NCBI GenBank assembly: GCA_016700095.1
Contig: CP065002.1
Location: 28,074 to 92,073, forward strand
Reading direction: 5' to 3'
DNA length: 64,000 nucleotides
From: Candidatus Woesebacteria bacterium
GTDB lineage: Bacteria > Patescibacteriota > Microgenomatia > UBA8517
The position numbers were made by a program, and so were the translations under genes. The number at the start of each line of letters is the position of its first letter. Within the stretch, counting starts at the first letter, position 1. Below, piece after piece: positions 3,374 through 56,763 of this stretch. The notes below the pieces were generated by a model that saw only the letters and a list, made by a program, of their open reading frames with translations, ran no database searches and had not been told where the DNA came from.

Positions 3374-3386
3374 ATCTCCACTTATT

Positions 3387-4550
3387 TCACCAGTTATGTG
3401 TTAAATTACAATTCTCATTTATTTGACAATCTGCCCATGTATGAACTTCATTCCAAACAAATTTACCATCCTCGGTAATGATACGTGGTGTAAATACATA
3501 TAGATTATCGTAATCAGGACTAATTTGAGGGTTAATCAATAGATCTTCCGGAATTACATTTGTCGACATATCATCTTGTGCTTCGTATATTCGTCGTGCC
3601 AATATTGCAAGTGCACTTGGATCCAGGGTGGTCTGCGTGTGGTATGTGACTATGTCGATAAGTGAACGAATTTTTTTTGGTGACAGCAATATTTCTTTGC
3701 TTAATACCTTTTCTTCTATGCTTTTTATTATCGCTTGTTGACGTAGACTGCGTGCAAAATCAGTACCCTCATCTCCATCGGCATTTCTTGAGCGTACATA
3801 CTTGAGAGCTAAGGCGCCATCCATGTGTTTAACACCCTTTTCAAAGACGATGGTTTCATACCTGCACATTAAACTTACGTCTCCGTTACAATCGTCGTTC
3901 TCCCTACCTTTTATCGGATATTTGTTGTCAACAAAAGCATTTTTGACATCAACCTCTATTCCACCAATTTCATCGATTATTTTTTCAAACACCGTGAAAT
4001 CAACAACCACGCTATAATGAACCGGTTGCCCCAATACCTCTTCTACAGCCGACTCGGCTAGTACAATTCCTCCGCCGGCTTGTTTTTTGTTTCCCCAATA
4101 GTAAGCACTATTTAACTTAGCTCTTAACTCAGGTATCCAAATATCTCTTGGTAGTGATATCATAACAATTTTTGATCGAGTGTGGTTCACGGAGACAAAC
4201 ATCATCGTGTCAGTCAGCTCCGGCGCTTCATGACCTTCACCACCTTTCCCTAAAATCAATATGTTTGTTTTGGAGTCATTGCTTTGCATCTTTTCGACTG
4301 GAGCAAATATAAAATCGGACGCTAATGACAAATAAAAGTCGGCCCCTGTCGTTTTTAAAATTAATCCTATAAATAAAACGACCAGATATACTAGCGCTAT
4401 AAATCCAAGAACAAGTGACGTCCTGATAACCCAAACATGCTTAAAAAGCTTTCTTTTTAGTTTAATAATAAACCTGTTTTTTCTTTTGGTTTGTTTACCA
4501 AGTGGCAACGGTGTCTTGTCAATTGTTTGGCTATGCGGTGTGTTGTCCAT
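3387..4550 (-). CDS. LytR-CpsA-Psr (LCP) family cell-envelope polymer transferase
   Basis: A single N-terminal TM is followed by ILILGKGGEGHEAPELTDTMMFVSVNHTRSKIVMISLPRDIWIP, the LCP-family core. Confidence 0.75.
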   Translation of the reverse strand: MDNTPHSQTIDKTPLPLGKQTKRKNRFIIKLKRKLFKHVWVIRTSLVLGFIALVYLVVLFIGLILKTTGADFYLSLASDFIFAPVEKMQSNDSKTNILILGKGGEGHEAPELTDTMMFVSVNHTRSKIVMISLPRDIWIPELRAKLNSAYYWGNKKQAGGGIVLAESAVEEVLGQPVHYSVVVDFTVFEKIIDEIGGIEVDVKNAFVDNKYPIKGRENDDCNGDVSLMCRYETIVFEKGVKHMDGALALKYVRSRNADGDEGTDFARSLRQQAIIKSIEEKVLSKEILLSPKKIRSLIDIVTYHTQTTLDPSALAILARRIYEAQDDMSTNVIPEDLLINPQISPDYDNLYVFTPRIITEDGKFVWNEVHTWADCQINENCNLTHNW

Positions 4551-4619
4551 GTTAGAATAATAAACACTTGCGGAAGTGCTCTTTGTATTAAGTCGCTACT
4601 AATTGTAAAGTGTAAAGCG

Positions 4620-6476
4620 ATGGCAAACAAGTTACTTGAAAATTTAAATACCAAACAACAAGAGGCGGTTGTATTTAGCGGCGGACCTTTACTTATTTTG
4701 GCTGGTGCAGGTAGTGGTAAAACACGAGTATTGACTCATCGAGCAGCATGGTTTGTAGAAAATAAAATTGCCAAACCGCAAAATATTTTACTGCTTACTT
4801 TTACCAACAAAGCAGCAGGTGAAATGAAAGACAGAATAGACAAGCTTACAAACAATGCCCCTTCTTTCGCGGGTACTTTTCATTCATTTTGCGTGCGACT
4901 ACTGCGCACCGACGGTGTAAAGATCGGCATACCCTCGCAATTTATCATCTACGATGAAACCGACCGCAAAGACGCAATTCGAGAAGTTCTTGACAAATTG
5001 GACATCTCCGACGATTCATACAAGCCAGCTTCAATTGCGCATCAGATTTCCGATGCCAAGAGCCAAATGTTAACACCCCTTGCTTACTCCGAGATAGTAA
5101 GAGGTGAATTCCAGGAAGTTGTTTTTAAGGTGTACTTGGAATATGAAAAAATGCTTAAAGAAATCGGAGCATTGGATTTTGACGATTTGTTGTTAAACGG
5201 AGTACGGCTTCTCAAGGAAGATCTGCCGACAAGGGACAAATGGCAAAAACAATTGACTCACATTCTAGTTGATGAATGGCAAGACACCAATAAAATTCAA
5301 TACAATCTCACCAAACTTCTTGTCGGAAAGGGAAATAATATAACTGCAGTTGGAGACGCCAGCCAATCTATCTATTCCTGGCGCGGAGCCGATTACAAAA
5401 ATATTAATTATTTAATGGATGATTATCCGGGCATAAAAGTAATCAACCTTGAGAGAAACTACCGATCAACCGAAAACATATTAAGCGCAGCTAATTCGAT
5501 TATTAAAAAAAATCAGAGCCATCCAGTTTTGGAACTTTGGACTGAAAAAGGAAAGGGTGAAAAAATTAAATTGTATAGAGCAGGAAACGGTTTGGATGAG
5601 GCACAGTTTGTTGTCGACGAAATCCAAAAACTGACTAAACTAAACAAACAAAGTACATTAAGTGATTATGCAATTTTGTATAGAACAAATGCGCAATCAC
5701 GCGTACTCGAGGAAGCTCTTCTACATGCAGGCGTACCATATACCCTAGTGGGGGGAACAAATTTCTATGATCGCCGTGAAGTCAAAGACATTATCGGATA
5801 TTTGAGACTGTTAATAAACGACAAGGACACGGTCTCTCGAAAAAGAATCGAAAAATTGGGTAAAAATCGCCTCAAGAGTTTTGACAATTTCACAAGCAGT
5901 ATAGCAAAAAAAATTACTTCACTAACGACCATTGAAATTATGGATGGATTAATCGCAAGTATAAACTATCTTGAGAAGTTTAAAAGAGATTCGGAGGAGA
6001 ATCTCCAAAGACTGGAGAATATCAAAGAGTTGCGAAGTGTAGCTAGTGAATTTCCAGTTCTTTCGGATTTTCTGGAAAACGTAAGCCTGGTTGAAGCTGA
6101 ACAAAAAAGTAAAAACACAATCGACTCAATACTGGGTGAGGCTGAAGGCAGGGTTACACTTATGACCCTGCATGCCGCCAAGGGTCTAGAATATCCGGTT
6201 GTTTTTATGGTCGGCATGGAAGAAGGGCTCTTTCCTCATTCCAGAAGCTTGTGGGATATAAACGAATTGGAAGAAGAACGAAGACTTGCCTATGTGGGTA
6301 TAACACGTGCCATGAACACTCTTTACCTTACCTTTGCAAACCGCAGGCTTTACTTTGGCCTAAGAACTTCAAATCCTCCGTCCAGATTTATTATTGACAT
6401 TCCCGAAGAGTTAATTGAAAGCTCAGTGGACACATCTTTCATTGACAGATCCTTTGATCCATCGCAAAACTTCTAA
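4620..6476 (+). CDS. pcrA: ATP-dependent DNA helicase, UvrD/PcrA family (short form)
   Basis: From MANKLLENLNTKQQEAVVFSGGPLLILAGAGSGKTRVLTHRAAW (Walker A, motif I), UvrD motifs continue through VDEWQDTN (motif II) and the YRS/GG motifs. The 43-codon N-terminal extension in the ORF track is not protein-like. Confidence 0.8.
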   Translation: MANKLLENLNTKQQEAVVFSGGPLLILAGAGSGKTRVLTHRAAWFVENKIAKPQNILLLTFTNKAAGEMKDRIDKLTNNAPSFAGTFHSFCVRLLRTDGVKIGIPSQFIIYDETDRKDAIREVLDKLDISDDSYKPASIAHQISDAKSQMLTPLAYSEIVRGEFQEVVFKVYLEYEKMLKEIGALDFDDLLLNGVRLLKEDLPTRDKWQKQLTHILVDEWQDTNKIQYNLTKLLVGKGNNITAVGDASQSIYSWRGADYKNINYLMDDYPGIKVINLERNYRSTENILSAANSIIKKNQSHPVLELWTEKGKGEKIKLYRAGNGLDEAQFVVDEIQKLTKLNKQSTLSDYAILYRTNAQSRVLEEALLHAGVPYTLVGGTNFYDRREVKDIIGYLRLLINDKDTVSRKRIEKLGKNRLKSFDNFTSSIAKKITSLTTIEIMDGLIASINYLEKFKRDSEENLQRLENIKELRSVASEFPVLSDFLENVSLVEAEQKSKNTIDSILGEAEGRVTLMTLHAAKGLEYPVVFMVGMEEGLFPHSRSLWDINELEEERRLAYVGITRAMNTLYLTFANRRLYFGLRTSNPPSRFIIDIPEELIESSVDTSFIDRSFDPSQNF

Positions 6477-6755
6477 CGTTCTTAAACACAAGATGTGACC
6501 AATCCATAACTAGGTTGTTCGGGTCAAATAAAGCATTTCCAGCAAGCTTCTTCATTGGTAACAAATATTAATACAAAGGCTTTACCTTAACTGCTGATTC
6601 GGACATTAAACAAAAATTAACCAGTTTGCCATCACCGCAGTACATCCACTTACACACTAAAGGATTCCGATAACTAAACACTAACGCCTATATGAAATCT
6701 GTTGATACTGATTTGCTCCATCAACACTTCCAAGGCTCCTAAGGTATAATAACTT

Positions 6756-7715
6756 ATGACCCCAAACAAATCAGAAATAAACAAAGTCGCTACTCACCCT
6801 TTGCAATCGTGGGAATGGGGGGAGTTTAGAAAAGAGTGGGGCAACGAGGTTGTCAGGCTTCCTTTTGGTCAGCTAATGCTACATAAAATTCCAAAAACAA
6901 ATTACAAAGTTGCTACCTTTATCAAAGGTCCTAAACCAAACCAGTCTCAGTTAGACACACTTAAAAAAATCGCCAAGGAAAACAATTATATATTTATTAA
7001 GCTTGAACCAAATATCAGGCATAACAAAAATAGCGAAATATTGTTAAAAAAATCAAACGCCAGACAGGGCAAGACGCTTTTTACTCCCACCACCTTCTGG
7101 ATAGATTTAACAAGAAATGAAGACGATGTAATGAAATCATTTGAATCTAAGACTCGCTACAATATTCGTCTTGCTCAAAAAAACGGCGTAGAAGTTGTTG
7201 AGGATAACTCCGGCAAGGCTTTTGAGAAATATCTTAAATTAACAAAAGAAACGGTAGAACGTCAAAAGTTTTATGCTCATTCAGAAAAATATCACAGACT
7301 CATGTGGGAACATTTACACACCTCAATGTCCGTTAACCCAATAGCAAGACTATTAACAGCCAAATACCGAGGAGAAATCATAACAACGTGGATCGTTTTT
7401 GTTTGGAAAGATTTTCTTTATTATCCGTACGGAGCGTCGACCTTCAAGCACAAAAATATCATGGCCAACAATCTCATGATGTGGGAAGCAATAAGGTATG
7501 GACAAAAAAACAACTTAAAAACTTTTGATCTTTGGGGGCGAGAGCCCGGTAAGGGGTTTACAAAGTTCAAGGAAGGTTATAAGCCCGAAATTGTTAGATT
7601 TATTGGCACATGGGACCTCGTTACCAGCAAACTTTATTCCACCTATAAACTCATCGATCAGACTAGGTGGTTTTTTCTTAGAAATAAAGCCAAGATCTCC
7701 AGGCCTACTTTTTAA
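6756..7715 (+). CDS. FemAB-family peptidyltransferase-like protein (peptidoglycan interpeptide bridge formation)
   Basis: The size and the C-terminal LYYPYGASTFKHKNIMANNLMMWEAIRYGQKNNLKTFDLWG resemble the FemX/FemAB (GNAT-fold) signature YxYAGS...YY. Confidence 0.55.
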   Translation: MTPNKSEINKVATHPLQSWEWGEFRKEWGNEVVRLPFGQLMLHKIPKTNYKVATFIKGPKPNQSQLDTLKKIAKENNYIFIKLEPNIRHNKNSEILLKKSNARQGKTLFTPTTFWIDLTRNEDDVMKSFESKTRYNIRLAQKNGVEVVEDNSGKAFEKYLKLTKETVERQKFYAHSEKYHRLMWEHLHTSMSVNPIARLLTAKYRGEIITTWIVFVWKDFLYYPYGASTFKHKNIMANNLMMWEAIRYGQKNNLKTFDLWGREPGKGFTKFKEGYKPEIVRFIGTWDLVTSKLYSTYKLIDQTRWFFLRNKAKISRPTF

Positions 7716-17032: not shown

Positions 17033-18529
17033 ATGTTTAAAACATTTATTATTAACCATGAAAAAAAGGTGCAGAGATTTCTCGAGGTACTTCCCGGACT
17101 TGTTTCTTGGAATCTGATTCTTTTCCCCTACTGGGGTATATTTATAATTCCAAAAGTCGTTGCTTATTACATATTGGGTTATACCGTTTATTGGTTTTAC
17201 CAGTCTTTCCAAATCGCAACAACCGGAATTATTTCCCATCTCAGAATACAAGCGTCGATGCAAAACGACTGGATCAAGGATTTAAATGCAAGATTCAAAG
17301 ATTGGCAAAAAATAAAACATGTGATAATTATTCCAACTTACAAGGAACCGCTTTACATTCTCGAACGTACTATATCTTCGGTTGCCAACCAAACGCTACC
17401 CAAAAAGCAAATCGTTCTTATACTTGCCATGGAAAAAAAGGAGGACGAGAAGGAAAGAAACATAAAAATTGCCGCTTTAACTAAGAAATTTGAGGGTGTG
17501 TTTGACAATTTCATTGCAACGGTTCACGAATTAGTACCGGGTGAGATTATCGGAAAGTCGTCAAACGAAAAATACGCAGCAAAGTGGTTTAAGGCAAATT
17601 ACATAGATAAATACAAAAAAGATATTAAAAATTATACAGTCACCAGTTGCGACGCAGATCACACTTTTCACAAAAATCATTTCGCATCACTTACATATCT
17701 TTATCTTGCCAACAAAGACAGATATATGAGGTTTTGGCAACCGGCAGTCCTTTTTTACAACAATATTTGGGAACTACCGGCAATCACAAGAACTACAAAC
17801 ATCTTAGGATCAATATTTAATTTATCGCAATTACCCAGAAAAGATAGATTAATAAATGTATCTAACTACTCATTGTCGTATAAATTGTTGCACGAAGTTG
17901 ATTACTGGGACGCGGATAAAATACCTGAAGATTGGGGTATATTTTTCAAGTCGTATTTCAAAAAACAAGGTGGTGTCGAAGTTGAAGCCAATTACTTACC
18001 GGTTTATGCAGACGCCGCACAGTCTTCAACAACCTGGAAAACTATAAAAAATCAATACGAACAAAAGAAACGCTGGGCATGGGGGGTATCAGATGATCCG
18101 TGGATAATTAAGGCTTATTTTCTTACTCCAAATGTTCCTTTCTGGGAAAAAACAATGCGTGTTTGGTATGTAATTCAGTCACATTTTTTTTGGCCGGTTC
18201 ATTGGTTTGCAATTACGATTGGACTTCAAATACCAGTACTTTTAAATGCCCGTTTCGGAAGAACAACTCTTGCTCATACCGTTCCGGAAATATCATCGGT
18301 TATTCTGACCGCAGCTCTGGGTTTTCTGTTTATAATGCTTATCTTAGATAGAATATATCGTCCAGAAAGACCATCACGTTACCCTGTTTGGCGAGCCATT
18401 GTTCAACCATTGGAGTTTTTCTTAATGCCGGTTGTGGGGTTTTTCTTTTCTGCACTACCCGGCTTGGATGCACATACGCGACTTATGTTGGGGAAATACA
18501 TTGAATACAAAGTTACGGAAAAAGTATAA
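17033..18529 (+). CDS. Processive family-2 glycosyltransferase (cellulose/chitin/hyaluronan-synthase-like), membrane-integrated
   Basis: It has VIIIPTYKEP, the D,D,D motifs (TSCDADH) and the Q-x-x-R-W motif (QKKRWAWG), with N- and C-terminal TM helices. Confidence 0.7.
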   Translation: MFKTFIINHEKKVQRFLEVLPGLVSWNLILFPYWGIFIIPKVVAYYILGYTVYWFYQSFQIATTGIISHLRIQASMQNDWIKDLNARFKDWQKIKHVIIIPTYKEPLYILERTISSVANQTLPKKQIVLILAMEKKEDEKERNIKIAALTKKFEGVFDNFIATVHELVPGEIIGKSSNEKYAAKWFKANYIDKYKKDIKNYTVTSCDADHTFHKNHFASLTYLYLANKDRYMRFWQPAVLFYNNIWELPAITRTTNILGSIFNLSQLPRKDRLINVSNYSLSYKLLHEVDYWDADKIPEDWGIFFKSYFKKQGGVEVEANYLPVYADAAQSSTTWKTIKNQYEQKKRWAWGVSDDPWIIKAYFLTPNVPFWEKTMRVWYVIQSHFFWPVHWFAITIGLQIPVLLNARFGRTTLAHTVPEISSVILTAALGFLFIMLILDRIYRPERPSRYPVWRAIVQPLEFFLMPVVGFFFSALPGLDAHTRLMLGKYIEYKVTEKV

Positions 18530-18694
18530 CCGGCTCCTTTCTATATAATCAGATATTGGTTTATTCTATATAAATATCACCACATAGTCGCACGTGTTGT
18601 AAATTCAAATATACATACCGAGGACGTGGTAATAAAACTCAAACATCACATACTTTGTCCCCTTTCATTTTGGACAACAAAGATATGTTAAACT

Positions 18695-20092
18695 TTGGTT
18701 ATGCCTGCAGACTTCCTTTCCAATAGCCAATTTACGTCTAGTTTAAATAATCCGGAAGCATTTAGTGCACTAGTTTCATTGCAACGACTCCCCGATGTTG
18801 TCAGGGTGACAATGAAGGATTTATTTCCTCCCCTATGGAATATCATCGAGTGGATTCTTTTTACCACTTTGGGGAAAGATGAGATATATATAAGAAGCAT
18901 ATCTTTTGCTTTTTTTGTTTTAACGACAGTTTTTACATATAAAATCGGCAAGCTTATGTATTCCGGCAAGACAGGACTGTTTGCCGTGTTGCTTGTTTTT
19001 TCTAATCCAATGATGTTCATTTTTGCTTTTGAAGGCAGAATGTTTTCTCTGCTTTCTTTTTTGACCACTGCATCACTATATTTTTATTTTAAGCTCATGA
19101 AACCGCTGGAAGAAAGAAAATTCGCGTTCCCGGGATATATTCTTACTACAATCTGTGCCTTGTACACCCACCATTCCGCCATATTTTTGTTATTTATCGA
19201 GATACCATGGCTGATCGTTATATTTTTTCAAGGTAAAAAAAATGCCGTCAAACGGTTGCTAAAAGCATATATCGTTGTTATCTTGTTGTACTTGCCGTGG
19301 TCATACTTGATGTATATTCATTTGCATAAAGGCAAAGACTTACTACTTTCCACAAGTGTTGAAGATATAAAATTATTAATCGACAGCTATCTTATTCCCG
19401 AAATAACAACCAATCCCGCTAGTATTGCAGTAGTAAATTATCCAATATACAAAATTGCATTAGTGTTTGTAGTTTTTATCTTAATAGCAAGGTGTTGGCA
19501 CAAATCGATCAAAAATACCGTATTTTTGATGTTGTGTTTTTTGGGTCCTATATTACTGTCGTGGTTAATAGCTCGGAATATCTCGATTACGGAAAGAAAT
19601 ATGGTTATCTACACAATTCCATATGCAATGTTGATCTTGGCATCAAAGCGAAGAAAGTACACAAGTATATTAATTGTAACACTGGTAGGCTTGTGGTTGG
19701 TTATGGATTTTTATTATTTCAAACACCCTCATAAAGCACCATTCAGAGAAATTACTCCTTTTGTCACGTCGGCAAAAGACAATGGAGATTTTGTCGTAAG
19801 CTGGTTTTCTGACTCAAACCGTCTATGGGAAACAAAATATTATAAACTCAATGCTCCAATATACTTACCCGGCACAACCAATGCACCAAATCTCTATACA
19901 ACTTCCCTCGTCGATGTAAGTGACACGGTAAAAGCAATACCCCAAAATACAAAAACCGTTGGGGTGTTGACTGATTTACCGCCAGAAGAAATTGTTTTAG
20001 AAAATTATGTCTTGCAAGAATATAAAGATATTAACGGATTGAAGTTTATATGGTATCGTTTAAATACAACAAGATTAAATGAAGACGATTAA
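18695..20092 (+). CDS. GT-C fold membrane glycosyltransferase (ArnT/PMT/GT83-like); start possibly internal
   Basis: A multi-TM protein. Translational overlap with the next GT-C gene (20079) indicates an operon. Confidence 0.5.
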   Translation: MVMPADFLSNSQFTSSLNNPEAFSALVSLQRLPDVVRVTMKDLFPPLWNIIEWILFTTLGKDEIYIRSISFAFFVLTTVFTYKIGKLMYSGKTGLFAVLLVFSNPMMFIFAFEGRMFSLLSFLTTASLYFYFKLMKPLEERKFAFPGYILTTICALYTHHSAIFLLFIEIPWLIVIFFQGKKNAVKRLLKAYIVVILLYLPWSYLMYIHLHKGKDLLLSTSVEDIKLLIDSYLIPEITTNPASIAVVNYPIYKIALVFVVFILIARCWHKSIKNTVFLMLCFLGPILLSWLIARNISITERNMVIYTIPYAMLILASKRRKYTSILIVTLVGLWLVMDFYYFKHPHKAPFREITPFVTSAKDNGDFVVSWFSDSNRLWETKYYKLNAPIYLPGTTNAPNLYTTSLVDVSDTVKAIPQNTKTVGVLTDLPPEEIVLENYVLQEYKDINGLKFIWYRLNTTRLNEDD

Positions 20093-21584
20093 TACTATTA
20101 AAAAACTTCACATTCCAATCTGGCTTTTTTGTCTGCTTGTCGGTGTATTGGTTTTAAGAATACCTTCATTGTTTGAGCCATACTACTACGGAGACGAAAT
20201 GATATATCTGGCACTAGGGAACGCCATAAAAAAAGGAATGGTGCTTTATAAAAGTATTCACGACAACAAACCACCACTCCTCTATCTCACGGCAGCAATT
20301 GCAGGTAATTTATTCTGGTTCCGAGCGATACTGGCTATTTGGCACTTGATGACAGTTTTTGTATTCTGGAAACTAGTTCGAGTTCTTTACCCCAAAAAAA
20401 TCAATCTGCAAAAAGTGTCAACCTGTGTGTTTGCACTACTGACAACGCTTCCTTTACTTGAAGGAAATATTGCCAATTCAGAAATGTTCATGATTGGCCC
20501 AACAATGGTCGGTTTTCTTATTCTTCTAAGGAAAAATCAAATTAGCGGAGCTCCTCTGGTCGCAGGACTTGCTTTTTCGATTGGTGCCCTTTTCAAAATC
20601 CCTGCCGCTTTTGATATGCCAGCAATAGTTCTTTTTTGGATAATCACGCAAAACTTTTCTTCGAAGGACATACTTATCACTATTAAAAAAACTGTTTTGC
20701 TTGCAGTGGGATTTGCCGTACCAATTCTTGTAACTTTTGTGTATTACTATTTCCGAGGTGCGTTGTCCGAATACTTCATCGCTGCTTTTGGTCAAAACTT
20801 CGGCTATCTCTCGTCGTTTAGGCCGGATGACACCAGAGAGCCATTTCTAACACGCAACGGACCGTTAATTTTTCGCGGACTTACGCTTCTTTCTGGTCTG
20901 GGTGTTTTGTTTTTGGCAAGAAAAAAGCTTAGTAAACAATTCATTTTCTTAACAACATGGTTACTTCTAACGATGTTTGCCGTCACTTTATCTGAACGAC
21001 CATATCCTCACTATTTAATTCAATCCATCCCCGTTGTGTCAATTATGATCGGAATACTATTTACTAATAAAAAAATCGAACAAACCCTGGTTATTATTCC
21101 TCTTTTAGTCTTTTTTGCAATACCGGTATATTACAAGTTTTGGTATTATCCTTCTGCTCCTTACTATGTAAGATATCTTGATTTTGTCTCCGGGAAAATT
21201 ACTTTAGACCAATATAGATCTGCTTTTGGAAATAATGTTAATGTTGATTATAAAGTTGCCAGGTTTGTGATAGATAACACGACAAAAGACGATAAAATTT
21301 TTGTGTGGGGTGATAATGCGGCTATTTATGCAATCACAAATAGATTCCCCCCCTTTAAATACGTTGTTGACTATCATATAAATGACTTTTCGACACAAGA
21401 AGATACTATTCAAGCTTTAAATGCTGACCTTCCTAAATTTATTGTGATCTTACCCAATTCCCAAGAGTTTCCCGATTTGGTCGGGTTAATCAAATCTAAA
21501 TACGGCACAGAAACATTAATCGATGGAGCGCAAATTTGGAGATTGCTAAACACCCCACTGCGCGAAAATTATATCATTGACTAG
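20079..21584 (+). CDS. GT-C fold membrane glycosyltransferase (ArnT/PMT-like)
   Basis: The N-terminal YYGDEMIYLALGNAIKKGMVLYKSIHDNKPPLLYL matches the DE/acidic first-loop motif of ArnT/PMT-type transferases. It has ~11 TM helices and a C-terminal soluble domain. Confidence 0.55.
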   Translation: MKTINTIKKLHIPIWLFCLLVGVLVLRIPSLFEPYYYGDEMIYLALGNAIKKGMVLYKSIHDNKPPLLYLTAAIAGNLFWFRAILAIWHLMTVFVFWKLVRVLYPKKINLQKVSTCVFALLTTLPLLEGNIANSEMFMIGPTMVGFLILLRKNQISGAPLVAGLAFSIGALFKIPAAFDMPAIVLFWIITQNFSSKDILITIKKTVLLAVGFAVPILVTFVYYYFRGALSEYFIAAFGQNFGYLSSFRPDDTREPFLTRNGPLIFRGLTLLSGLGVLFLARKKLSKQFIFLTTWLLLTMFAVTLSERPYPHYLIQSIPVVSIMIGILFTNKKIEQTLVIIPLLVFFAIPVYYKFWYYPSAPYYVRYLDFVSGKITLDQYRSAFGNNVNVDYKVARFVIDNTTKDDKIFVWGDNAAIYAITNRFPPFKYVVDYHINDFSTQEDTIQALNADLPKFIVILPNSQEFPDLVGLIKSKYGTETLIDGAQIWRLLNTPLRENYIID

Positions 21585-21725
21585 AATCACCGGAAATTCC
21601 CAACACTATCTAGAAGTTAATAATAATACATATATCCTTTTGCCCCGGTTAGTTGTCGTAGATTATCTTGGATTTTAAGCCGCCAACAGAGTAAAATCAT
21701 TCAAAGAAAGGTAATTTACCAACCA

Positions 21726-22148
21726 ATGAGAGTCAAGAGAAAAGTAAAAATACACAACAATATTCCCCTAACACTTAACAACACCTTTGCGGGAACAAAC
21801 AGACTTCACAAACAAATTGAAAAGAACTTGATATATCCAAAAATACTGTTTGTATCCCTTCTCCTTATTGCTCTTTCAATACTGTCGACATTTTTACTCA
21901 CACAATATCTTCCACCCGAAATACCACTCTTTTTTGGTCTGCCGGAAAGCGAAGATCAGATCGCTTCATCTTCCGCACTCATTGTCCCAAGTCTGTTTTC
22001 TCTGGCCATACTTGTCTTGAATTCGACAATTGCTTATTTTTCTAACGATAAATTTATCAAGATGGTATTAATATTTTCTAGTCTTGCAATTTCATTGTTA
22101 TCAACCATCGCAACCCTGAAAATCACACTACTTATCGGAAGTTTTTAA
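21726..22148 (+). CDS. Small hypothetical membrane protein
   Basis: Three or four hydrophobic helices; stop 4 nt before the next gene. Confidence 0.35.
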   Translation: MRVKRKVKIHNNIPLTLNNTFAGTNRLHKQIEKNLIYPKILFVSLLLIALSILSTFLLTQYLPPEIPLFFGLPESEDQIASSSALIVPSLFSLAILVLNSTIAYFSNDKFIKMVLIFSSLAISLLSTIATLKITLLIGSF

Positions 22149-22152
22149 TTAG

Positions 22153-23229
22153 ATGACACTTATATCGTTAATCATTCTACCGCTCATTGTTTCTTTCATG
22201 ACATCTTATTTATCTACACCGTGGGTGATCAAATTTGCCACAAGGTTTAATCTGATTGACGATCCAAAAGTTAACAAACATCCCAAGGTATTACACAAAA
22301 GGCCAATTCCCAGAGCAGGAGGACTCGCAACATTTATAGGTGTATTAGCCGGAATCGTGTTTTTCCTACCCTTAGACAAACATATCGTCGCTATCGCTAT
22401 TGGTGCGCTCATTATTGTTGTTCTTGGAATACTGGATGATAAATATAACATACATCCACTATTGCGCTTAATTGCAATGACTCTTGCAGCACTTATTCCA
22501 ATTGCATCGGGAATTGGAATCGCTTTTGCAACGTCACCTCTGGGTGGTCTTATCGATCTGTCGTATCCCAGATTTGAATTTTTTCTTATGGGGGAAGAAA
22601 GAAGCATATGGATCCTCTCTGACATTTTTGCTTTGTTTTGGATTGTCTTCATGATGAACATTCTAAACATGGGCGCAAAGGGCATACAAGGTCAACTACC
22701 CGGTGTAACCGCTATTGCCGCAACGACCATTGTCTTGCTTTCGACTAAATTTACCGCGGATATTACCGAATGGCCCGTAATGATACTTGCAGTGATAACA
22801 ACGGGTGCATACTTAGGATTTCTACCATGGAATTTTTTTCCCCAAAAAATAATGCCCGGTTTCGCGGGCTCGACTCTGGCGGGCTACTTACTTGCTGTAC
22901 TATCTATTCTTTCAACTGCCAAGGTGGGTACACTTTTAATTGTCCTGGGAATACCGATTGTAGATACCCTCTATACGATTTTTAGGCGTATCGCATCAGG
23001 AAAGTCACCGTTTTGGGGCGATAGAGGTCATCTCCATCACAAATTACTCGATTCAGGTTTATCTCAAAAACAGGTTGTATATTTTTACTGGGCAACAACA
23101 TGTCTCTTGGGCGCATTGGCATTAAATTTGAACGCTTCACATAAGTTGTATACAATAATAGGTATAACAATATTTACCGGCGGTCTCCTGCTCTTTCTCA
23201 CCCATAAGCCGAAAAATGTTAATAACTAG
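22153..23229 (+). CDS. Polyprenyl-phosphate N-acetylhexosamine-1-phosphate transferase (MraY/WecA family)
   Basis: It carries LIDDPKVNKHPKVLHKRPIPRAGGLATF (the WecA/MraY cytoplasmic loop motif), ILDDKYN (the DDxxD-like Mg site) and a PIVDTLYTIFRR C-terminal motif, with 10-11 TM helices. Confidence 0.7.
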   Translation: MTLISLIILPLIVSFMTSYLSTPWVIKFATRFNLIDDPKVNKHPKVLHKRPIPRAGGLATFIGVLAGIVFFLPLDKHIVAIAIGALIIVVLGILDDKYNIHPLLRLIAMTLAALIPIASGIGIAFATSPLGGLIDLSYPRFEFFLMGEERSIWILSDIFALFWIVFMMNILNMGAKGIQGQLPGVTAIAATTIVLLSTKFTADITEWPVMILAVITTGAYLGFLPWNFFPQKIMPGFAGSTLAGYLLAVLSILSTAKVGTLLIVLGIPIVDTLYTIFRRIASGKSPFWGDRGHLHHKLLDSGLSQKQVVYFYWATTCLLGALALNLNASHKLYTIIGITIFTGGLLLFLTHKPKNVNN

Positions 23230-23352
23230 CTGTAGTGTTGGGTGATAAGTTGAGTCAATTTGTCAACATTAATATAAACGTCTCTGTTGGTAAACAGAAA
23301 AAACGGATAATATGAATAGGTATTAAATACATGCAAGGTCGCACTTACTAAC

Positions 23353-24315
23353 ATGAAATCTAAAAATCTATCATTAATTAAACTAATTATCGGTAGCATA
23401 AAGGTTGCAAGACCCCTACACTGGATTAAAAACTTCTCTTTGTTCGCAGCGCTAATTTTCTCAGGAGGACTATTTAATCCGGTTTTGTTTGCAACCGCAT
23501 TTTGGGGTTTCGTTTCGTTTAATTTTGCGGCAAGTGCAACGTACATTTTTAACGATTTTCGCGACATAAAACACGACAAACTTCACCCAATTAAAAAAAA
23601 TAGGCCACTTGCTGCGGGTACAATTCCGGTGAATATTGCACTTCTGGAAATGTTGTTCTTTGTTCTCCTATCCATCAATGTTGCTGTCAATTTTGTAAAT
23701 CCACTCTTTACAACTGCTGTAATTTCATATTTTCTCCTGCAATTTTTTTACAGCTTAATCCTCAAAAATTGGCCTACGATTGACATACTGGTAATTGCGC
23801 TTGGTTTCATCATCAGAGTCTACGCTGGGGCGATTGCCGTCGATGCTCATCTGTCTGTATGGTTTTTGTTGTGTGTAATTTCCGTAGCACTATTTTTAGC
23901 CTCCGGAAAAAGAAGATCTGAATTAAACATATTAAATACAACCAAAATAGTAACCAGGAATAGCCTGTCTAAATACAAACGTGAATTATTGAATTCTTAC
24001 GTTACGATGTTTGGGAACGCAGCCTGGATGTCTTGGGCACTTTTTACATTTTTTGAATCTCCCGAAGCGCCTATGCCTGTGTGGTTGTTTTTAGCAGAGA
24101 TATCAAGAACAACAACAATAAGCAAACTCATGATGATTACAATTCCCGTTGTAATCTTTGCAATTATGAGATATCAAAGTCTTATTTTTGCCGGTAAATC
24201 GGAGGCTCCGGAATTAGTATTACTGAAAGACAAACCGCTCGTTTTGTCTATCGTCATCTGGATTTCACTAGTTGTTTGGGTCATTTACTATTCTTCCACT
24301 GCACTAATCACCTAA
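23353..24315 (+). CDS. UbiA-family prenyltransferase, decaprenyl-phosphate phosphoribosyltransferase (DPPR synthase)-like
   Basis: NDFRDIKHDKLHPIKKNRPLAAG matches the NDxxDxxxD...HP.K..RP.A.G signature of the DPPR-synthase subgroup of UbiA enzymes, with ~8 TM helices. Confidence 0.6.
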   Translation: MKSKNLSLIKLIIGSIKVARPLHWIKNFSLFAALIFSGGLFNPVLFATAFWGFVSFNFAASATYIFNDFRDIKHDKLHPIKKNRPLAAGTIPVNIALLEMLFFVLLSINVAVNFVNPLFTTAVISYFLLQFFYSLILKNWPTIDILVIALGFIIRVYAGAIAVDAHLSVWFLLCVISVALFLASGKRRSELNILNTTKIVTRNSLSKYKRELLNSYVTMFGNAAWMSWALFTFFESPEAPMPVWLFLAEISRTTTISKLMMITIPVVIFAIMRYQSLIFAGKSEAPELVLLKDKPLVLSIVIWISLVVWVIYYSSTALIT

Positions 24316-25193
24316 TTTGCACTTGTTGGCTGCGGAGTTAAATTCGCCTCATCTTCTTTGGAATCACTGTCAAGAATTTTTGTATAAGTTGTTGATACCC
24401 ACCCATCTTTACCTTCTTCATAACTAATTTTATGCCATTCACCGTCTTCACTTTCCTCAAGTAATACATATGTCTCCCCCGGAATTACCTTTCCTATTTC
24501 TTCACTGCCACTTGAGGCATCACTTCTTACTCGCAAAAAGTTTGTGGGGGTGGAAAGAATTTCAATCTCGGTTTGCGTTTTTATTTCCAGTTCATCTTTG
24601 TCTTCCTCTATCACAATTTGGTCAGATTTTGCCAGCTTAACAATAACTGTAAGCATGTAGCCTTCATATGTTTTGATTTTAATTGACCGATCACTAAAAC
24701 CGGGTGCCGTCAAACTTAAGGTATATTCTCCCTGAGACACATCCGTCGTTTTAAAAGGTGCAAATCCTCTTATCACACCGTCAATTTTAACCTGCGCGCC
24801 GTCGGGTTGAGACAAGACAGCCAGGCTGGTCTCGGTTTTTCCCACGCGTTCAAACGATACAATCTCACCCGAAGAAGTATCCTCTAAATCTTTGAATTCC
24901 CGTGTAATTACGGTTTCCACACCCGAAGTTAGATTAACCATCGTTTCATATGGAGTCAGTGGTAATTCAAAAGAGTCGGGGACAAGCTTAATTACTTTCT
25001 CGCCGGGCTCATAAATGGCATTATATGGAGTCCTTCCAACCTGTTTTCCATCTATATAAACAGAGGCAAGTGGAGTTGTTTGTATAAGAAGTCCCGCTCC
25101 CTTAGGCTTGAAAAAACCAACCAAAAAAAGTACGATCACCAAAAGAGCTAGTAACGCAAGTATTGGAACAAGTAGTTTTTTTGTTTTATTCAC
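24312..25193 (-). CDS. PEGA-domain surface protein with C-terminal SH3-like domain
   Basis: A signal/TM anchor is followed by two PEGA-type repeats (VYIDGKQVGRTP; VKIDGVIRGFAP) and a C-terminal GETYVLLEESEDGEWHKISYEEGKDGWVS (SH3b-like). Confidence 0.6.
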   Translation of the reverse strand: MNKTKKLLVPILALLALLVIVLFLVGFFKPKGAGLLIQTTPLASVYIDGKQVGRTPYNAIYEPGEKVIKLVPDSFELPLTPYETMVNLTSGVETVITREFKDLEDTSSGEIVSFERVGKTETSLAVLSQPDGAQVKIDGVIRGFAPFKTTDVSQGEYTLSLTAPGFSDRSIKIKTYEGYMLTVIVKLAKSDQIVIEEDKDELEIKTQTEIEILSTPTNFLRVRSDASSGSEEIGKVIPGETYVLLEESEDGEWHKISYEEGKDGWVSTTYTKILDSDSKEDEANLTPQPTSAN

Positions 25194-25787: not shown

Positions 25788-27071
25788 CTACTCGGGAATT
25801 TCTCGGTGTAGTGTCACAATCGACCGCTCTGAAACAATATCTTCCAACACTTCAGATAATATCGACGGTAACTGGTCAGCTTGTGAGGCATTGAAATAGT
25901 TGGTTGAATAATTTCTAAATATATTAATCACATCTTTGGGTGGATTGTTGAAAATTGTTACAGAGTAAGCGTCTGTTTCTGGTTTCCTCTGTCCGTATAT
26001 TCCTAGTCCGGGTATGTACGTTTCTTTGTCAGCAAGTGCACATTTCAGATAATCCTTCCCCAACGGCTCACAAATACTGTAAGCGACTGCATTGAAATTT
26101 GTAGCGTCCCACGGTCCATCCTTGTACTGCTCGTACAGATAACACTGCCAACCATACTCATTAGTATCACAGTAGTTATTATTTATCGTATCAATAGGAA
26201 AAGCTGGACAAAACACACTAAGAGGACACCCGGAACTGGGCACTCTAGAGTTGGGTATGCCATCAGTAATTACAATTTCAATCTGTTTTGTTCCCGTATT
26301 GTCGTCGGCGAAATATTTATGCGACATGTCATATGCGGATCCGACACTGGTTGAGTCCATAACCGACTGACACGCAGGACTTTCTTGTCTTGTTGATCCG
26401 AACCCGTCGTTTAAGGCGCTAATGATTTCATCAAAGGTGTATCCGGCATCCGGCGAAACATCACCCCTACTCGATACCAGCCACTTGGCATCTATCCCAA
26501 AAACATTTATCCCTATGTTAAATTTGTTGGAATTTTCCAAATCTTTTATGTTGTTAACAAAATTTATAGCCGCTTCTTTTTGTGCATCAAATCTCGTCGG
26601 ACGGGTAAAGCAGTTTGGGCAACTTGCGCCGGCATCCATGCTACCGGTACAGTCAAGCGATAATATGATGTCTATCTTTTCAACATTGCCCAATGAATAT
26701 ATTGTTCGTTCGGCTCTTACCTTACTTGCCGAATAGCCCAATTCCGAAGTAACTAAAAAAGTTTGTACATTTTCAAGTTGATTCCCCGATGCAACAATTC
26801 TTGATGATCCTATTTCAAAACTTTCGTTAAAAGGCATATCATCTTTATCTAGATAGCCTCCGATAAACCTTGCCAAGTAATCATTTGCGATACTCTCGGC
26901 TTGATAGGTTGAAACAAGACTGTCCGAAGCAGATTTGGTTCTTCTAAGTGCCAACAACAATCTTGATTGTGCAACCGCAAGTAGAAGTGCTGCGATAATG
27001 GCAATGATTAATACATACAAGAGTATGACTGCACCGGATTGATTTATATTTTTACGACTTATCGATTTCAT
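25788..27071 (-). CDS. von Willebrand factor A (vWA) domain protein with N-terminal membrane anchor (pilus tip/adhesin-associated)
   Basis: An N-terminal hydrophobic helix is followed by [13 protein letters not shown] (the MIDAS DxSxS motif). It is the last gene of the pilin operon, with a 4-nt overlap with the upstream pilin gene. Confidence 0.6.
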
Positions 27072-28258
27072 CTTAATGGTTTAGGCGTTGGTGTTGGTGT
27101 ATTTGTTGGTCTAGGCGTACTTGTCGGTCTTGGTGTATTTGTTGGTCTAGGCGTCGCAGACGGATACCACGTAGGCGTTGGCCTTCGTGTTGGGGATGGT
27201 CCAAATGTTGGCGACGGATTGGGTGTAACGGTCTGCGTGATTGGGGTCGGAGTATCGGGCGTCGTAGAAGGTTCTATGGACGGAACGGAAGTTGGGCTAA
27301 TTGTCGGAGACGGCAAGATAGGTTGTATTAAACCAATTACTCCCCCAGAGCGTGGCGATACGATAAGCGTAAGTGTTTCACGTACATCGGGAGACAGTCT
27401 GTGTGACAAATCCATACTCACCTGAATACTTGACATCAGCGATGTCGGATATAAATTAGTAGAAGGAATCACTTCATAAACAAAATCCGTGTGTGCCCAA
27501 TCTAGCTTGATTTCCGCTCTACCGGCTACTTTGTAGTATTCAACAACGATATTGTATCTTGTATTTTTGTCGAGCAAGATATTTCCTTGCGCTTGAGACT
27601 TTCCGTCTTTCCATTTGTTTATCACTATTTTATCGTCAATAGTCAATCGCGACCCGTCATTAGAATTCAATCTAAAGCGATAATTTCCCCTATTCCGTGT
27701 TTCAAGTTGCCCGGTCCAACGAATCGAATACGACCCGTCGTCTATCTCAGGGCTTGGTGTATCAAAACTCCAATCAAAATCTATATCCGGATCAATTCGC
27801 GTAATTTTATAACCGGTAAAGTTCTCGTTGTCAAAGTAGTTTCCAGTCAGTCCTATTCCTGCTTCGAGCTCAACAGGATCAAGCGACGATGAATATTTTG
27901 TTACTTGGAAATTCTCAACAATCACATCTTTGCTTGTCAGAGGATCATCACCCTTATACAAACGTCCGTCAATCACTCGATACTGCACAGCATCAACACC
28001 AAGAACTCCTCCTGTAAATGTAACGTTTTCGTTAGCCCATTTTACACTGTTGCCTATCTCCAGCTGTACATCGTTTTTACTTTGTTCAAGCGTTTCAAGC
28101 TTTTTTTGTTTAGTGCTAATACCAAAAAGAGAGACAATCAGGTTTGAGGCAACAATAAATATTGCAGTTGAAACGACCACTCCAATTAGCACTTCAATCA
28201 GAGTTATACCTTCAAAATGCGAGTGTTGTTTATGAGTAAAAGGAATTCTTGATTTCAT
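27068..28258 (-). CDS. Type IV pilin/pseudopilin-like protein with PA14 domain and Pro/Thr-rich repeat tail
   Basis: The N-terminus has the prepilin motif [15 protein letters not shown] (G|ITLIE). A central PA14-like segment is present ([13 protein letters not shown]...[40 protein letters not shown]). The C-terminus is [37 protein letters not shown], encoded by ~27-nt tandem DNA repeats. Confidence 0.65.
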
Positions 28259-28259
28259 A

Positions 28260-28760
28260 TCATTTTTCGGGAACTCGATAGCTTAATAGTCTGGCGGTAA
28301 CCGCTTTTTCGTTTCCTGATTCAATCCACTTGACACTGGTTTCAATGATTCGGCTGTTTACGTCTATTTCACCACTGCAGATATTATTAAGCTCATAATC
28401 TTCAATTCTTGCTCCCGTGTCCACATGTCTGCATACACTTATTAGTTTTATACTACGTGTAAATCTGGCCTGTAAATTGTTCTCTTCCCCAGTCACGAGA
28501 ATCCAACTATCTTCGTCCTCATCGTATGCCGGATGATACAAGCCATCCGAATATCCATCCCAATCTCCAATAATGGCGTTGTGTGCTATTTCGACACCTT
28601 CTTGAACAAGCAAACTTGCCCCCGAGTCATATTTGCTTTTCTGTGTTTTAACCTCAAGCATCCCGATGGAGGCATAAAGTGACAAACCTACTAATGAAAA
28701 AATCACGATTGCAATCAAAGTCTCGATAATCAGAAAACCCTTTATATTGTTATCTTTCAT
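28260..28760 (-). CDS. Type IV pilin/pseudopilin-like protein (minor pilin)
   Basis: [24 protein letters not shown] has the prepilin cleavage/N-methylation motif G|FLIIE plus a hydrophobic helix. Its stop sits 2 nt from the next gene. Confidence 0.6.
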
Positions 28761-28797
28761 TGTTGTTATAACGTGTTACGTAACCTAAATAGTATTT

Positions 28798-29286
28798 TTA
28801 TTCCAAACTCTCAATATTGGATACTTCAACTACGCCTGTTTTAAATATTTCAAGAGTAATTTTCTTTTTCTTTGAGTTTACAAGCGTTATACTTGCGGCA
28901 TTTATCGTTTCTCCCGTCCCCTTCTCAAACCAGATGGTAAAATTATGGTCGAAAGTAATTCCGGGATCGAGACTGAATGCTGATTCCTTGGTATACGAAT
29001 CAGCGTTACCGGAAACTACATTATATTTCACATACGTATCGTTTATTATTCCCCAATTAGACTTTTGATTTGCTTCTCGAGCAAACACGTGTGCATTTCT
29101 AATATGATCCGCCAGTGCTTCTGCAGACGCATTAAGCGCTTGGTTGTTTCGTGAATCCCTATAAGTAGTTACGAGTGGTACAATCAGCACTCCAATTATG
29201 GAAACGGCGATGAGCATTTCAATAAGCGTAAACCCGTAGCCACAGGTGTGTTTATTGCATTTTTTATATTTGAAACGGGCAAACAT
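28798..29286 (-). CDS. Type IV pilin/pseudopilin-like protein
   Basis: The N-terminus ...GYGFTLIEMLIAVSIIGVLIV carries the canonical G|FTLIEML prepilin motif. Confidence 0.65.
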   Translation of the reverse strand: MFARFKYKKCNKHTCGYGFTLIEMLIAVSIIGVLIVPLVTTYRDSRNNQALNASAEALADHIRNAHVFAREANQKSNWGIINDTYVKYNVVSGNADSYTKESAFSLDPGITFDHNFTIWFEKGTGETINAASITLVNSKKKKITLEIFKTGVVEVSNIESLE

Positions 29287-29298
29287 GGCAGATTAAAG

Positions 29299-29808
29299 TT
29301 ATTTTACGACTATTTGTGCTGGACTTGAAAATATTTGCAACGGTTTATCAAATGCCGTGATTTGTATGTCTTCTAGGGGGATTTCTACGCTTATATTTCC
29401 ACTTTCTTCAGCCAAAACCGTAACCACACCTAGTTCCACTTGTCCCTTAAACGGGCGTTGATAATCAATTGTTTGATTTTTTGTAATTATCCCATTTGAC
29501 GCAATATTTATCGCTATAGATGGAATTATAAGCGAATCACTTTCAAACATAGCTATTACTTTCAAATCAACTTCGTTACCGCGACTAACAACCACATTCC
29601 CGGGTTCGAACCACAATCTGAGTTCGGCATCCGATTGAGCCTGTGGTGAAAATCTTAAGTTTGGTGGAGTTGTTATAAAGAAAATGAAGGCTGGCAATAT
29701 TGCTGCCAGCAAAAAGACGGGGAGTAACTTTTTTGTAAAAGATACAATCTTTAAATCGTACCTTCTTTTCTCCGGCTTGTCTTTGGGGACGATAAAATGA
29801 TAATCCAT
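29299..29808 (-). CDS. Hypothetical membrane-anchored protein, first gene of the pilin operon
   Basis: One TM helix (LLPVFLLAAILPAFIFFITT) is followed by a beta-rich extracytoplasmic region. Confidence 0.4.
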   Translation of the reverse strand: MDYHFIVPKDKPEKRRYDLKIVSFTKKLLPVFLLAAILPAFIFFITTPPNLRFSPQAQSDAELRLWFEPGNVVVSRGNEVDLKVIAMFESDSLIIPSIAINIASNGIITKNQTIDYQRPFKGQVELGVVTVLAEESGNISVEIPLEDIQITAFDKPLQIFSSPAQIVVK

Positions 29809-48452: not shown

Positions 48453-48460
48453 AGTAAGGA

Positions 48461-48697
48461 CTAAATGTGTATTATCTTCGGATTATCGCTTTTCGTCAAT
48501 GGATTACATGTAGCAAGTCTCAACGCTGTTTTTCCAAGTCCCGTTATAACGCCGTACTTTTCCACTGCTTTAATCGCATAATCGCCACAGCTTAGACTAT
48601 TTGGAGTATAAACACACGCTTGACCAAAAAAAGATTGGAAAATCGGGGATACAAATTTTTTATACAGTTTTAAAATTACAATAATGGAAGTTTTCAT
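48461..48697 (-). CDS. yidD: Membrane protein insertion efficiency factor YidD
   Basis: KLYKKFVSPIFQSFFGQACVYTPNSLSCGDYAIKAVEKYGVITGLGKTALRLATCNPL is the YidD signature. Confidence 0.7.
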   Translation of the reverse strand: MKTSIIVILKLYKKFVSPIFQSFFGQACVYTPNSLSCGDYAIKAVEKYGVITGLGKTALRLATCNPLTKSDNPKIIHI

Positions 48698-48699
48698 CT

Positions 48700-56762: not shown

Positions 56763-56763
56763 A

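Follow-up and report, generated by a model that had tools for sequence, protein, structure and literature searches.

In mycobacteria, the decaprenyl-phosphate-arabinose/arabinogalactan pathway involves the UbiA-family enzyme Rv3806c together with Rv3807c, DprE1/DprE2, Rv3789, AftA-D/EmbA-C, WecA, GlfT2 and Lcp1. A three-component pentofuranose system is found in Citrobacter youngae O1/O2 and consists of a polyprenyl-phosphate 5-phosphoribosyltransferase (PPPRS; ORF15), a MATE flippase (ORF14) and a glycosyltransferase of the GT-C fold class belonging to GT136 (ORF12) (Kelly et al., PNAS 2024, PMC11127046). The principle of a PPPRS acting with a GT-C protein was described there as widespread, including Gram-positive bacteria and a phage, and taxa of the Candidate Phyla Radiation (CPR) are not among the systems in its supplement. 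In the characterised non-actinobacterial systems the pentose is set by epimerases encoded in the cluster, ribofuranose being used where there is none, xylofuranose where there is an SDR and arabinofuranose where there are DprE1/E2 (PMC11127046). Here we describe six genes, including a PPPRS homologue and two GT-C proteins termed GT-C(a) and GT-C(b), in a 64-kb stretch of a Candidatus Woesebacteria genome (contig CP065002.1, positions 28,074 to 92,073; hereafter the window, in which all coordinates are given). We consider it fairly probable that they form a conserved envelope-glycan locus built around a lipid-linked pentofuranose donor that depends on phosphoribosyl pyrophosphate (PRPP) and is used by GT-C(b). 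The three-component system is the closest known framework for this locus.

An original prediction, made from the letters of the window alone, had listed six co-directional genes and proposed for them an actinobacteria-like polyprenyl-phosphate-pentose pathway. All six open reading frames (ORFs) were found on the + strand, and they fill positions 17033-24315 exactly. With the convergent neighbour, they are as follows:

17033-18529, + strand: family 2 glycosyltransferase (GT2) of a predicted membrane-embedded, processive type (PgaC/cellulose-synthase-like), 498 aa, assigned by PF13632, motifs and a PgaC profile alignment
18701-20092, + strand: GT-C(a), a protein of ArnT/PMT-like GT-C fold, 463 aa from the ATG at 18701; accessory, fast-evolving and without the WGDE motif
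20079-21584, + strand: GT-C(b), the glycosyltransferase of the core block, 501 aa; of the two GT-C genes, it is this one that is inherited along with that of the PPPRS
21726-22148, + strand: small membrane protein of an orphan family with three transmembrane segments by hydropathy (3-TM protein), 140 aa, without a Pfam or NCBIfam match
22153-23229, + strand: predicted WecA-like polyprenyl-phosphate sugar-1-phosphate transferase (PNPT superfamily), 358 aa, PF00953
23353-24315, + strand: predicted PPPRS, a homologue of decaprenyl-phosphate phosphoribosyltransferase (DPPR synthase) in the UbiA superfamily, 320 aa, NF008978 and 8j8j
24312-25193, - strand: membrane-anchored extracytoplasmic protein with PEGA (PF08308, E 4e-19) and SH3_3 (PF08239, E 6e-10) domains

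The genes are tightly packed, with a 14-nt overlap between GT-C(a) and GT-C(b), a 4-nt gap between the 3-TM and WecA-like genes and 39 nt between the end of metG and the start of GT2, and the GT-C(b) and PPPRS genes lie on the same strand within 1.8 kb of each other. The GT-C(a) ORF opens at a TTG (18695), the ATG at 18701 being the likely start. The PEGA/SH3 protein, with one predicted N-terminal transmembrane segment, is encoded by a gene converging on the stop codon of the UbiA-family gene. The window is AT-rich (about 37% GC), and promoter and terminator scans gave nothing above shuffled expectation.

The UbiA-family protein carries the DPPR-synthase motif NDFRDIKHDKLHPIKKNRPLAAG, and its profile scores, full-length match to Rv3806c, pairwise comparisons and position in a phylogenetic tree all mark it as a predicted DPPR-synthase-type enzyme, the assignment proposed originally. 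The NCBIfam models for decaprenyl-phosphate phosphoribosyltransferase gave 205.5 (NF008978), 192.2 (NF008977) and 143.3 bits, and the HAD-fused UbiA model 'PRK08238', which judging from its architecture stands for fused synthases of the ORF15 type, gave 144.7 bits; other prenyltransferase models (heme O synthase, UbiA, chlorophyll synthase, GGGP-type) did not exceed 41 bits. When all PDB sequences were searched, the only matches were the M. tuberculosis Rv3806c structures 8j8j and 8j8k, the former aligning over the full length (residues 10-308, E 1e-34). The protein shares 30-35% identity over its full length (E 1e-36 to 1e-52) with PPPRS proteins of Halostagnicola, Tsukamurella, Chondrinema, Lactococcus and M. 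tuberculosis, with 30% identity to Rv3806c itself, whereas E. coli UbiA, CyoE and MenA gave E-values of 0.004, 0.05 and 11. In a neighbour-joining tree, for which, as for the pairwise comparison, the references were taken from annotated records and E. coli UbiA, MenA and CyoE were included, the CPR clade sits inside the PPPRS group, which covers five phyla and includes Rv3806c, and not with the three E. coli proteins. Residues N67, D68, D71 and D75 of loop II (NDxxDxxxD) and R187, R188 and E190 of loop IV are invariant in 21 homologues, K186 also being present, and their counterparts are required for activity in C. youngae ORF15 and Rv3806c (PMC11127046). Some relatives with 62-65% identity are named DPPR synthase by NCBI, and PGAP calls some of them 'decaprenyl-phosphate phosphoribosyltransferase'. 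With 320 aa, the window protein has no extra (phosphatase) domain.

Structure comparison assigned both large membrane proteins a polytopic GT-C fold. For GT-C(b), the structural matches were GPI-mannosyltransferase I (21.0), ALG3 (20.9), PIG-U (19.1), AglB (18.8), ALG6/ArnT (17.8), PimE (16.4) and AftA (13.8), placing it nearer to ALG3/PIG-M/PimE-type enzymes than to ArnT/PMT. Neither protein had a PDB sequence match, and Pfam gave only a sub-threshold PMT_2 match to GT-C(a) and none to GT-C(b); on this basis neither counts as a canonical orthologue of PMT or ArnT. The label carried by relatives is 'GT39 family' in the case of GT-C(a) and PF27757/PMT_2 or 'ArnT-like' in the case of GT-C(b). 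No sequence similarity of either protein to the Emb or Aft (AftA/AftB/AftD) families was detected, nor do the mycobacterial arabinofuranosyltransferases stand out as nearest to either. The two are only remote relatives of each other (hhalign E 3e-4). Thus, of the two overlapping ArnT/PMT-like proteins first predicted, the GT-C fold and the overlap stand, whereas the family resemblance has to be revised for GT-C(b) and GT-C(a) turns out to be a diverged copy. Neither of the two outcomes that were named as refuting the first prediction was observed, i) a UbiA protein clustering with quinone prenyltransferases and ii) GT-Cs that are canonical PMT or ArnT orthologues with other known donors.

GT-C(b) has an invariant G38-D39-E40 just after the first transmembrane segment, the usual position of the catalytic acid in GT-C enzymes. 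The GT-C(a) family begins with W-G-D-E-G-F-S-A without a preceding first transmembrane segment, and WGDE is present in 30 of 30 aligned homologues, whereas the window copy reads NNPE, with the Asp lost and the Glu kept. In this copy 33 of 104 near-invariant columns are changed, whereas the other 39 members have at most 5 such changes (median 1); the same count is 0-1 for GT-C(b), the 3-TM protein, the phosphotransferase and the PPPRS. The nearest relative is 79% identical in the UbiA-family protein and 65% in GT-C(b) but only 47% in GT-C(a), its own GT-C(a) keeping the consensus residues. Because GT-C(a) is present in only half of the related loci (see below), has lost WGDE and is an outlier in its own family, we regard it as an accessory GT-C that in this lineage has undergone either decay or a shift in function (neofunctionalisation); its ORF is still intact in the window.

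The remaining three proteins of the locus fit their first descriptions. The GT2 matches PF13632 (E 3e-9) and has the window motifs QKKRW, TSCDAD and IPEDW; the corresponding family motifs TS.D.D, IPEDW and Q..RWAWG, which make up the D/DxD/ED/QxxRW signature, are conserved in 54 homologues. When the family profile was aligned with E. coli PgaC (residues 14-423; hhalign probability 75.5%, E 2.4e-5), the motifs were in register, and hhalign found no relationship to GlfT2. It is therefore a predicted processive synthase of the PgaC/BcsA/HAS type, and in some relatives it is separable from the core block of genes. The PF00953 protein (E 5e-21, 75.8 bits), proposed as a WecA/MraY-type initiating phosphotransferase, appears WecA-like in sequence and lies far below the equivalog cut-off, with 100 bits for TIGR02380 (WecA; cut-off 326) and 44.7 bits for mraY, also below cut-off. 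It shares 28% identity over 298 aa with E. coli WecA (E 5e-19), compared with a partial match of 116 aa to MraY (E 5e-7). Residues D95-D96, N169, N172, D271, D290 and HLHH293-296 are invariant, and as HLHH aligns with the HIHH of WecA and the scores favour WecA, an identity as MraY was ruled out. A D179Q substitution was considered as a sign of inactivation and not upheld, 3 of 75 family members being without that Asp; Lys is found throughout the family where WecA has D156, and eukaryotic GPT-type enzymes have neither Asp.

The small membrane protein has three predicted hydrophobic transmembrane segments (Kyte-Doolittle), and its family shares a conserved LPPxxPLFYG..GE.QL loop. An exhaustive search returned 437 representatives at E<=1e-3, and the best 150 of them, 84-169 aa in length, are without exception small proteins that stand alone. 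As there are no fusions among these 150 and no Pfam or NCBIfam family was matched, the search for a fusion partner or known family gave none; we regard the protein as a candidate accessory subunit or flippase.

To assess conservation, one genome per species was taken, giving 80 orthologous loci, all from metagenome-assembled genomes (MAGs) of Woesebacteria, Microgenomates or Patescibacteria, and the neighbourhood of each was examined within ±10 kb. Homologues of the PPPRS were detected in 80/80 loci by tblastn, of GT-C(b) in 77/80, of the 3-TM protein in 77/80 (always between GT-C(b) and the WecA-like gene), of the WecA-like protein in 75/80, of the PEGA/SH3 neighbour in 79/80 (immediately downstream), of the GT2 in 55/80 and of GT-C(a) in 40/80. 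The gene order GT-C(b), 3-TM, WecA-like, PPPRS and convergent PEGA/SH3 is essentially invariant, and the core block from GT-C(b) to PPPRS is intact in about 75-77 of the 80 species, in keeping with the conservation proposed as a check on the prediction. The GT2, with metG upstream, occurs in about 46-55 of the loci, and the stretch from GT2 to GT-C(b) varies in content, other genes often being inserted there. Conserved in about 75-79 of the 80 related species, the arrangement of the block is not due to chance. As flanking housekeeping genes are also syntenic, conserved order alone is weak evidence of functional coupling; more weight comes from about 11 loci in which the core block is intact though the upstream context is entirely different, and from the adjacency of PPPRS and GT-C genes in unrelated lineages.

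This adjacency recurs in at least five distant lineages, which include Bacteroidota, haloarchaea and actinobacteria, and the following loci are worth noting: i) the Lactococcus plasmid pLLF27D (L083, 7359-12635), with a 533-aa putative GT-C ('hypothetical protein'), DPPR synthase, HAD-IB phosphatase and GtrA, and an LCP gene nearby; ii) a Rhizobium plasmid, with a HAD-UbiA fusion, GtrA, an FAD oxidoreductase, an SDR and two putative GT-Cs ('hypothetical protein'); iii) Chondrinema, with DPPR synthase, an FAD oxidoreductase and an SDR, along with GT39 genes; iv) Halostagnicola, with a PMT-like GT-C, an oxidoreductase, DPPR synthase and PHP; and v) Tsukamurella, with glf, a glycosyltransferase (GlfT2-like by context), PAP2, DPPR synthase and a gene annotated 'zomB' in the position of AftB in M. 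tuberculosis. The Lactococcus module, carried by an exopolysaccharide plasmid of a dairy organism, implies ribofuranose-type decoration of a lactococcal polysaccharide.

Two sugar-nucleotide genes, the only recurrent ones around the 80 loci, were observed in relatives and are absent from the window. An orthologue of UDP-glucuronate decarboxylase (UDP-xylose synthase; about 314 aa, E 3e-107 to human UXS1) occurs in 24 of the 80 relatives, on the opposite strand in the slot between GT2 and GT-C(b) (e.g. L077:3379-4332(-)), which suggests that xylose is present in the glycan of the species that carry it. Being such an orthologue, this SDR was ruled out as an ORF13-type lipid-pentose epimerase. 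In 10 loci galU lies downstream. Many of the GTDB representative MAGs with a typical Woesebacteria locus (L006, L008, L009 and others) are titled 'uncultured Gammaproteobacteria bacterium' and one 'Alphaproteobacteria'; these look like mislabelled public records.

Components expected from the known systems were searched for in two ways. In Pfam scans of essentially all window ORFs, neither FAD_binding_4 (DprE1) nor an SDR (DprE2-like) was found, nor a synthase of the DPM1/GtrB type, the PPPRS being the only polyprenyl-monophosphate-sugar synthase found in the window. A reference-based search of 1.48 Mb (the window and the 80 loci) by tblastn, phmmer and two-sequence hidden Markov models, with proteins from reference PPPRS loci, was of low sensitivity, as it missed the LCP positive control; for DprE1-like, DprE2-like, GtrA, HAD, PAP2 and PHP proteins it returned only one SDR (L007). 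Clustering of unexplained neighbouring ORFs around the 80 loci revealed no recurrent DprE1/E2-sized family, and neither the window nor the recurrent neighbours within ±10 kb in relatives included a phosphatase of the Rv3807c type or a flippase of the Rv3789/GtrA type. The dprE1/dprE2-like genes that the first prediction looked to were thus found neither in the window nor, by clustering and the low-sensitivity search, within ±10 kb of the 80 loci.

Like the system of Kelly et al., the window locus has an Rv3806c-type PPPRS with the same catalytic loops beside GT-C genes; that system uses ribofuranose by default, without an epimerase, and its modules occur in both Gram-positive and Gram-negative bacteria, e.g. 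the GT-C–DPPR synthase–HAD–GtrA module of Lactococcus. Unlike it, the window locus has neither a fused or neighbouring HAD-type phosphoribose phosphatase nor a MATE/GtrA flippase, and it contains the orphan 3-TM protein and the WecA-like phosphotransferase inside the block. Its GT-Cs carry the labels of other sequence families (PF27757/PMT_2-like), and it lies in a conserved core region near the origin of a genome of about 1.3 Mb and not in a serotype-variable O-antigen island.

With the mycobacterial pathway the locus shares a homologous PPPRS, GT-Cs presumed to use lipid donors, a WecA-like initiator, a processive-type GT2 and an LCP gene 13 kb away. It differs in that the searches brought up neither DprE1/DprE2 nor a PAP2 phosphatase or a protein of the GtrA type, its GT-Cs are not of the Emb/Aft families and its GT2 resembles PgaC rather than GlfT2; the sugar is thus probably not arabinose. 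D-arabinofuranosylation of pilin in Pseudomonas (para)aeruginosa Pa5196/PA7 likewise combines a PPPRS and a GT-C outside the actinobacteria, and a protein might be the acceptor at the window locus too, but that system has linked DprE1/E2 homologues and the pilin-associated GT-C TfpW, whereas the window cluster has no linked epimerases and the pilin-like operon near it is not co-conserved. Among the annotated records searched, the PPPRS nearest to the window protein (35% identity, E 1e-51) comes from an uncharacterised locus on a plasmid of the haloarchaeon Halostagnicola larsenii, where it is also encoded beside a GT-C; this locus includes a PHP-domain phosphoesterase and an SDR-type NAD(P) oxidoreductase, both absent from the window. 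Of the actinobacteria-like pathway first proposed, the pairing of PPPRS and GT-C is thus retained and the arabinose half is not. The actinobacteria are not the best comparator, as modules of PPPRS and GT-C had already been described as widespread (PMC11127046).

On these grounds we infer donor use by the GT-Cs, the identity of the sugar and the acceptor as follows. At the cytoplasmic face, the UbiA-type enzyme would transfer 5-phosphoribose from PRPP to polyprenyl phosphate, a step to which its full-length homology and intact catalytic residues point. A separate phosphatase would then remove the 5'-phosphate and a separate flippase would move the lipid across the membrane; a gene for the phosphatase could lie in another part of the genome, and for transport, or for the role of an accessory subunit, the locus offers no candidate but the 3-TM protein. 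Polyprenyl-phosphate-ribofuranose would serve as donor at the outer face for GT-C(b), and also for GT-C(a) in species with a functional copy. As the cluster includes no epimerase gene, ribofuranose is more probable than arabinofuranose as the sugar transferred. The WecA-like enzyme embedded in the block and the PgaC-like GT2 suggest that the acceptor is a lipid-linked or synthase-made polysaccharide; it is most likely a polyprenyl-diphosphate-linked or synthase-made glycan that the former would begin and the latter extend, giving a pentofuranose-decorated surface or wall polysaccharide as product. A cell-wall glycopolymer, as originally envisaged, may be this acceptor. About 13 kb upstream of the cluster, a set of envelope genes (1163-7715) includes a 736-aa DUF2298 polytopic membrane protein (E 6e-105), a FemAB-like peptidyl transferase and a divergently oriented LytR_cpsA_psr (LCP) glycopolymer ligase gene (3387-4550, E 1e-31). 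The last suggests that the organism can attach polymers to peptidoglycan, and its product could ligate the polymer of the cluster.

Several observations weigh against a pentofuranose pathway at this locus. The PPPRS falls below the curated equivalog cut-offs (205.5 against 207 bits for NF008978, a shortfall of 1.5 bits, and 192 against 234 for NF008977). Among the window ORFs, Pfam detected no PAP2, HAD or PHP phosphatase and no GtrA or MATE transporter, nor was there an SMR match. GT-C(a) looks degenerate in this genome, and the best structural matches of both GT-Cs use polyprenyl-phosphate-hexose or 4-amino-4-deoxy-arabinose (Ara4N) donors. The GT-Cs are also unrelated in sequence to those of the reference PPPRS loci except for a weak match to a Chondrinema GT39 protein, and no similarity of the GT-Cs of the Lactococcus and Rhizobium loci to either window protein was detected. 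Finally, the flanking housekeeping genes (rmuC, metG, groES/EL) are syntenic too across Woesebacteria.

Some of these observations could be accommodated by supposing that the adjacency is historical, the GT-Cs using a polyprenyl-phosphate-hexose from unlinked synthases of the DPM1/GtrB type and the PPPRS product feeding some other transferase or being an end product, i.e. a membrane phosphoribosyl lipid. In a region that is syntenic as a whole, gene order is weak evidence; the hexose or Ara4N transferases among the structural matches and the phosphatase and flippase not found in the window or by the low-sensitivity search of the 80 loci also fit this explanation. We nevertheless regard it as very doubtful, because the core block stays intact where its upstream neighbours differ, PPPRS and GT-C genes have come together independently in at least five distant lineages and no polyprenyl-phosphate-hexose synthase was found in the window. 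A function of the UbiA protein in ordinary aromatic or quinone prenylation (UbiA/MenA type), unrelated to glycans, is effectively refuted: the protein does belong to PF01040, and several JGI relatives are automatically named '4-hydroxybenzoate polyprenyltransferase', but the UbiA, MenA, CyoE and chlorophyll-synthase models score at most 41 bits against 205 for DPPR synthase, E-values are 0.004-11 with the E. coli proteins but 1e-36 to 1e-52 with PPPRS proteins, the PDB matches are to Rv3806c only and the tree agrees.

Two further alternatives keep the PPPRS and change the sugar or the acceptor. The same donor might be used on proteins, the GT-Cs O-glycosylating surface proteins such as the PEGA/SH3 neighbour or pilins, as TfpW does on Pseudomonas pilin, with the WecA-like enzyme and GT2 serving a separate polymer. 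There is a precedent in PPPRS-dependent pilin arabinosylation; relatives of GT-C(a) are classed as GT39/PMT_2, the protein O-mannosyltransferase family; and the PEGA/SH3 extracytoplasmic protein, encoded convergently to the PPPRS gene in 79 of the 80 loci, is a possible wall-associated partner or acceptor. A pilin-like operon also lies just downstream in the window, but it has counterparts in only 1-2 of the 80 relatives, the WecA-like gene belongs to the closely packed core, with only 4 nt between it and the preceding gene for the small membrane protein, and the fold or family of a GT-C does not predict its class of acceptor. We therefore think glycosylation of proteins rather unlikely. A mycobacterial-type decaprenyl-phosphate-arabinofuranose pathway, with DprE1/DprE2-like enzymes encoded elsewhere and the GT-Cs acting as D-arabinofuranosyltransferases that build an arabinan, is improbable: no DprE1- or DprE2-like gene was identified in the window or, by the low-sensitivity search, in the 1.48 Mb that include the 80 loci, in non-actinobacterial arabinofuranose systems the epimerase genes adjoin that of the PPPRS (Rhizobium and Chondrinema loci; PMC11127046), and the GT-Cs are without sequence similarity to Emb or Aft enzymes. 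A ribofuranose donor used by GT-C(b) on a polysaccharide remains the interpretation that we prefer.

Other parts of the window were also annotated. As dnaA, dnaN, rnpA and yidC are located at 47619-52400 and the cumulative GC-skew has its minimum at about 48-50 kb, the glycan cluster is about 25 kb from the replication origin. Directly downstream of hsp20, at 25788-29808 on the - strand, there is an operon of five genes for VWA_2, PA14 and N_methyl (type IV pilin-like) proteins; this is the pilin-like operon mentioned above, and as homologues were found in so few of the related loci (e.g. L053), it looks like a lineage-specific insertion. The - strand at 54759-58483 carries genes for a TraG-type P-loop ATPase and for a PrgI-family protein with a fused CarboxypepD_reg domain, along with a 220-aa ORF that has no annotation; in this CPR genome they are a putative module for type IV secretion or a conjugation-like process, and large ORFs without annotation are found close by (59225-61165 and 61193-62785).

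Members of the CPR/Patescibacteria have genomes of about 1 Mb and live attached to other cells, and to our knowledge almost nothing is known experimentally about their cell envelopes. Our literature searches on glycan genes of CPR, Patescibacteria and Woesebacteria found no publication on this locus. Its mechanism, in which a PRPP-derived polyprenyl-phosphate-pentofuranose donor is used by GT-Cs, is already established, in mycobacteria and in systems that modify O-antigens, so that the locus is a new example and not a new principle, and the advance would lie in distribution and CPR biology. It extends the strategy of pentofuranose glycosylation to a deep, uncultured lineage and stands out by i) its core-genome status in a reduced genome, ii) the lack of recognisable phosphatase, flippase and epimerase genes, and iii) its orphan 3-TM partner and distinct GT-C family. 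A bolder proposal, which we regard as speculative and unlikely, is that in all Woesebacteria, and perhaps in many Microgenomates, the envelope has a polymer that carries or consists of ribofuranose or even 5-phosphoribofuranose, supplied from a polyprenyl-phosphate donor through an unrecognised GT-C family, the 3-TM protein replacing the flippase or an adaptor. If true, ultra-small CPR bacteria would have in this polymer a minimal counterpart, encoded by the core genome, of arabinogalactan or teichoic acid, and it would be anionic if the 5'-phosphate is retained, no phosphatase being encoded nearby. The locus supplies concrete candidate enzymes, namely the PPPRS, a new GT-C family and the orphan 3-TM partner, and its retention in nearly every sampled Woesebacteria species suggests that a surface or wall polysaccharide is important for the attached lifestyle of these bacteria.

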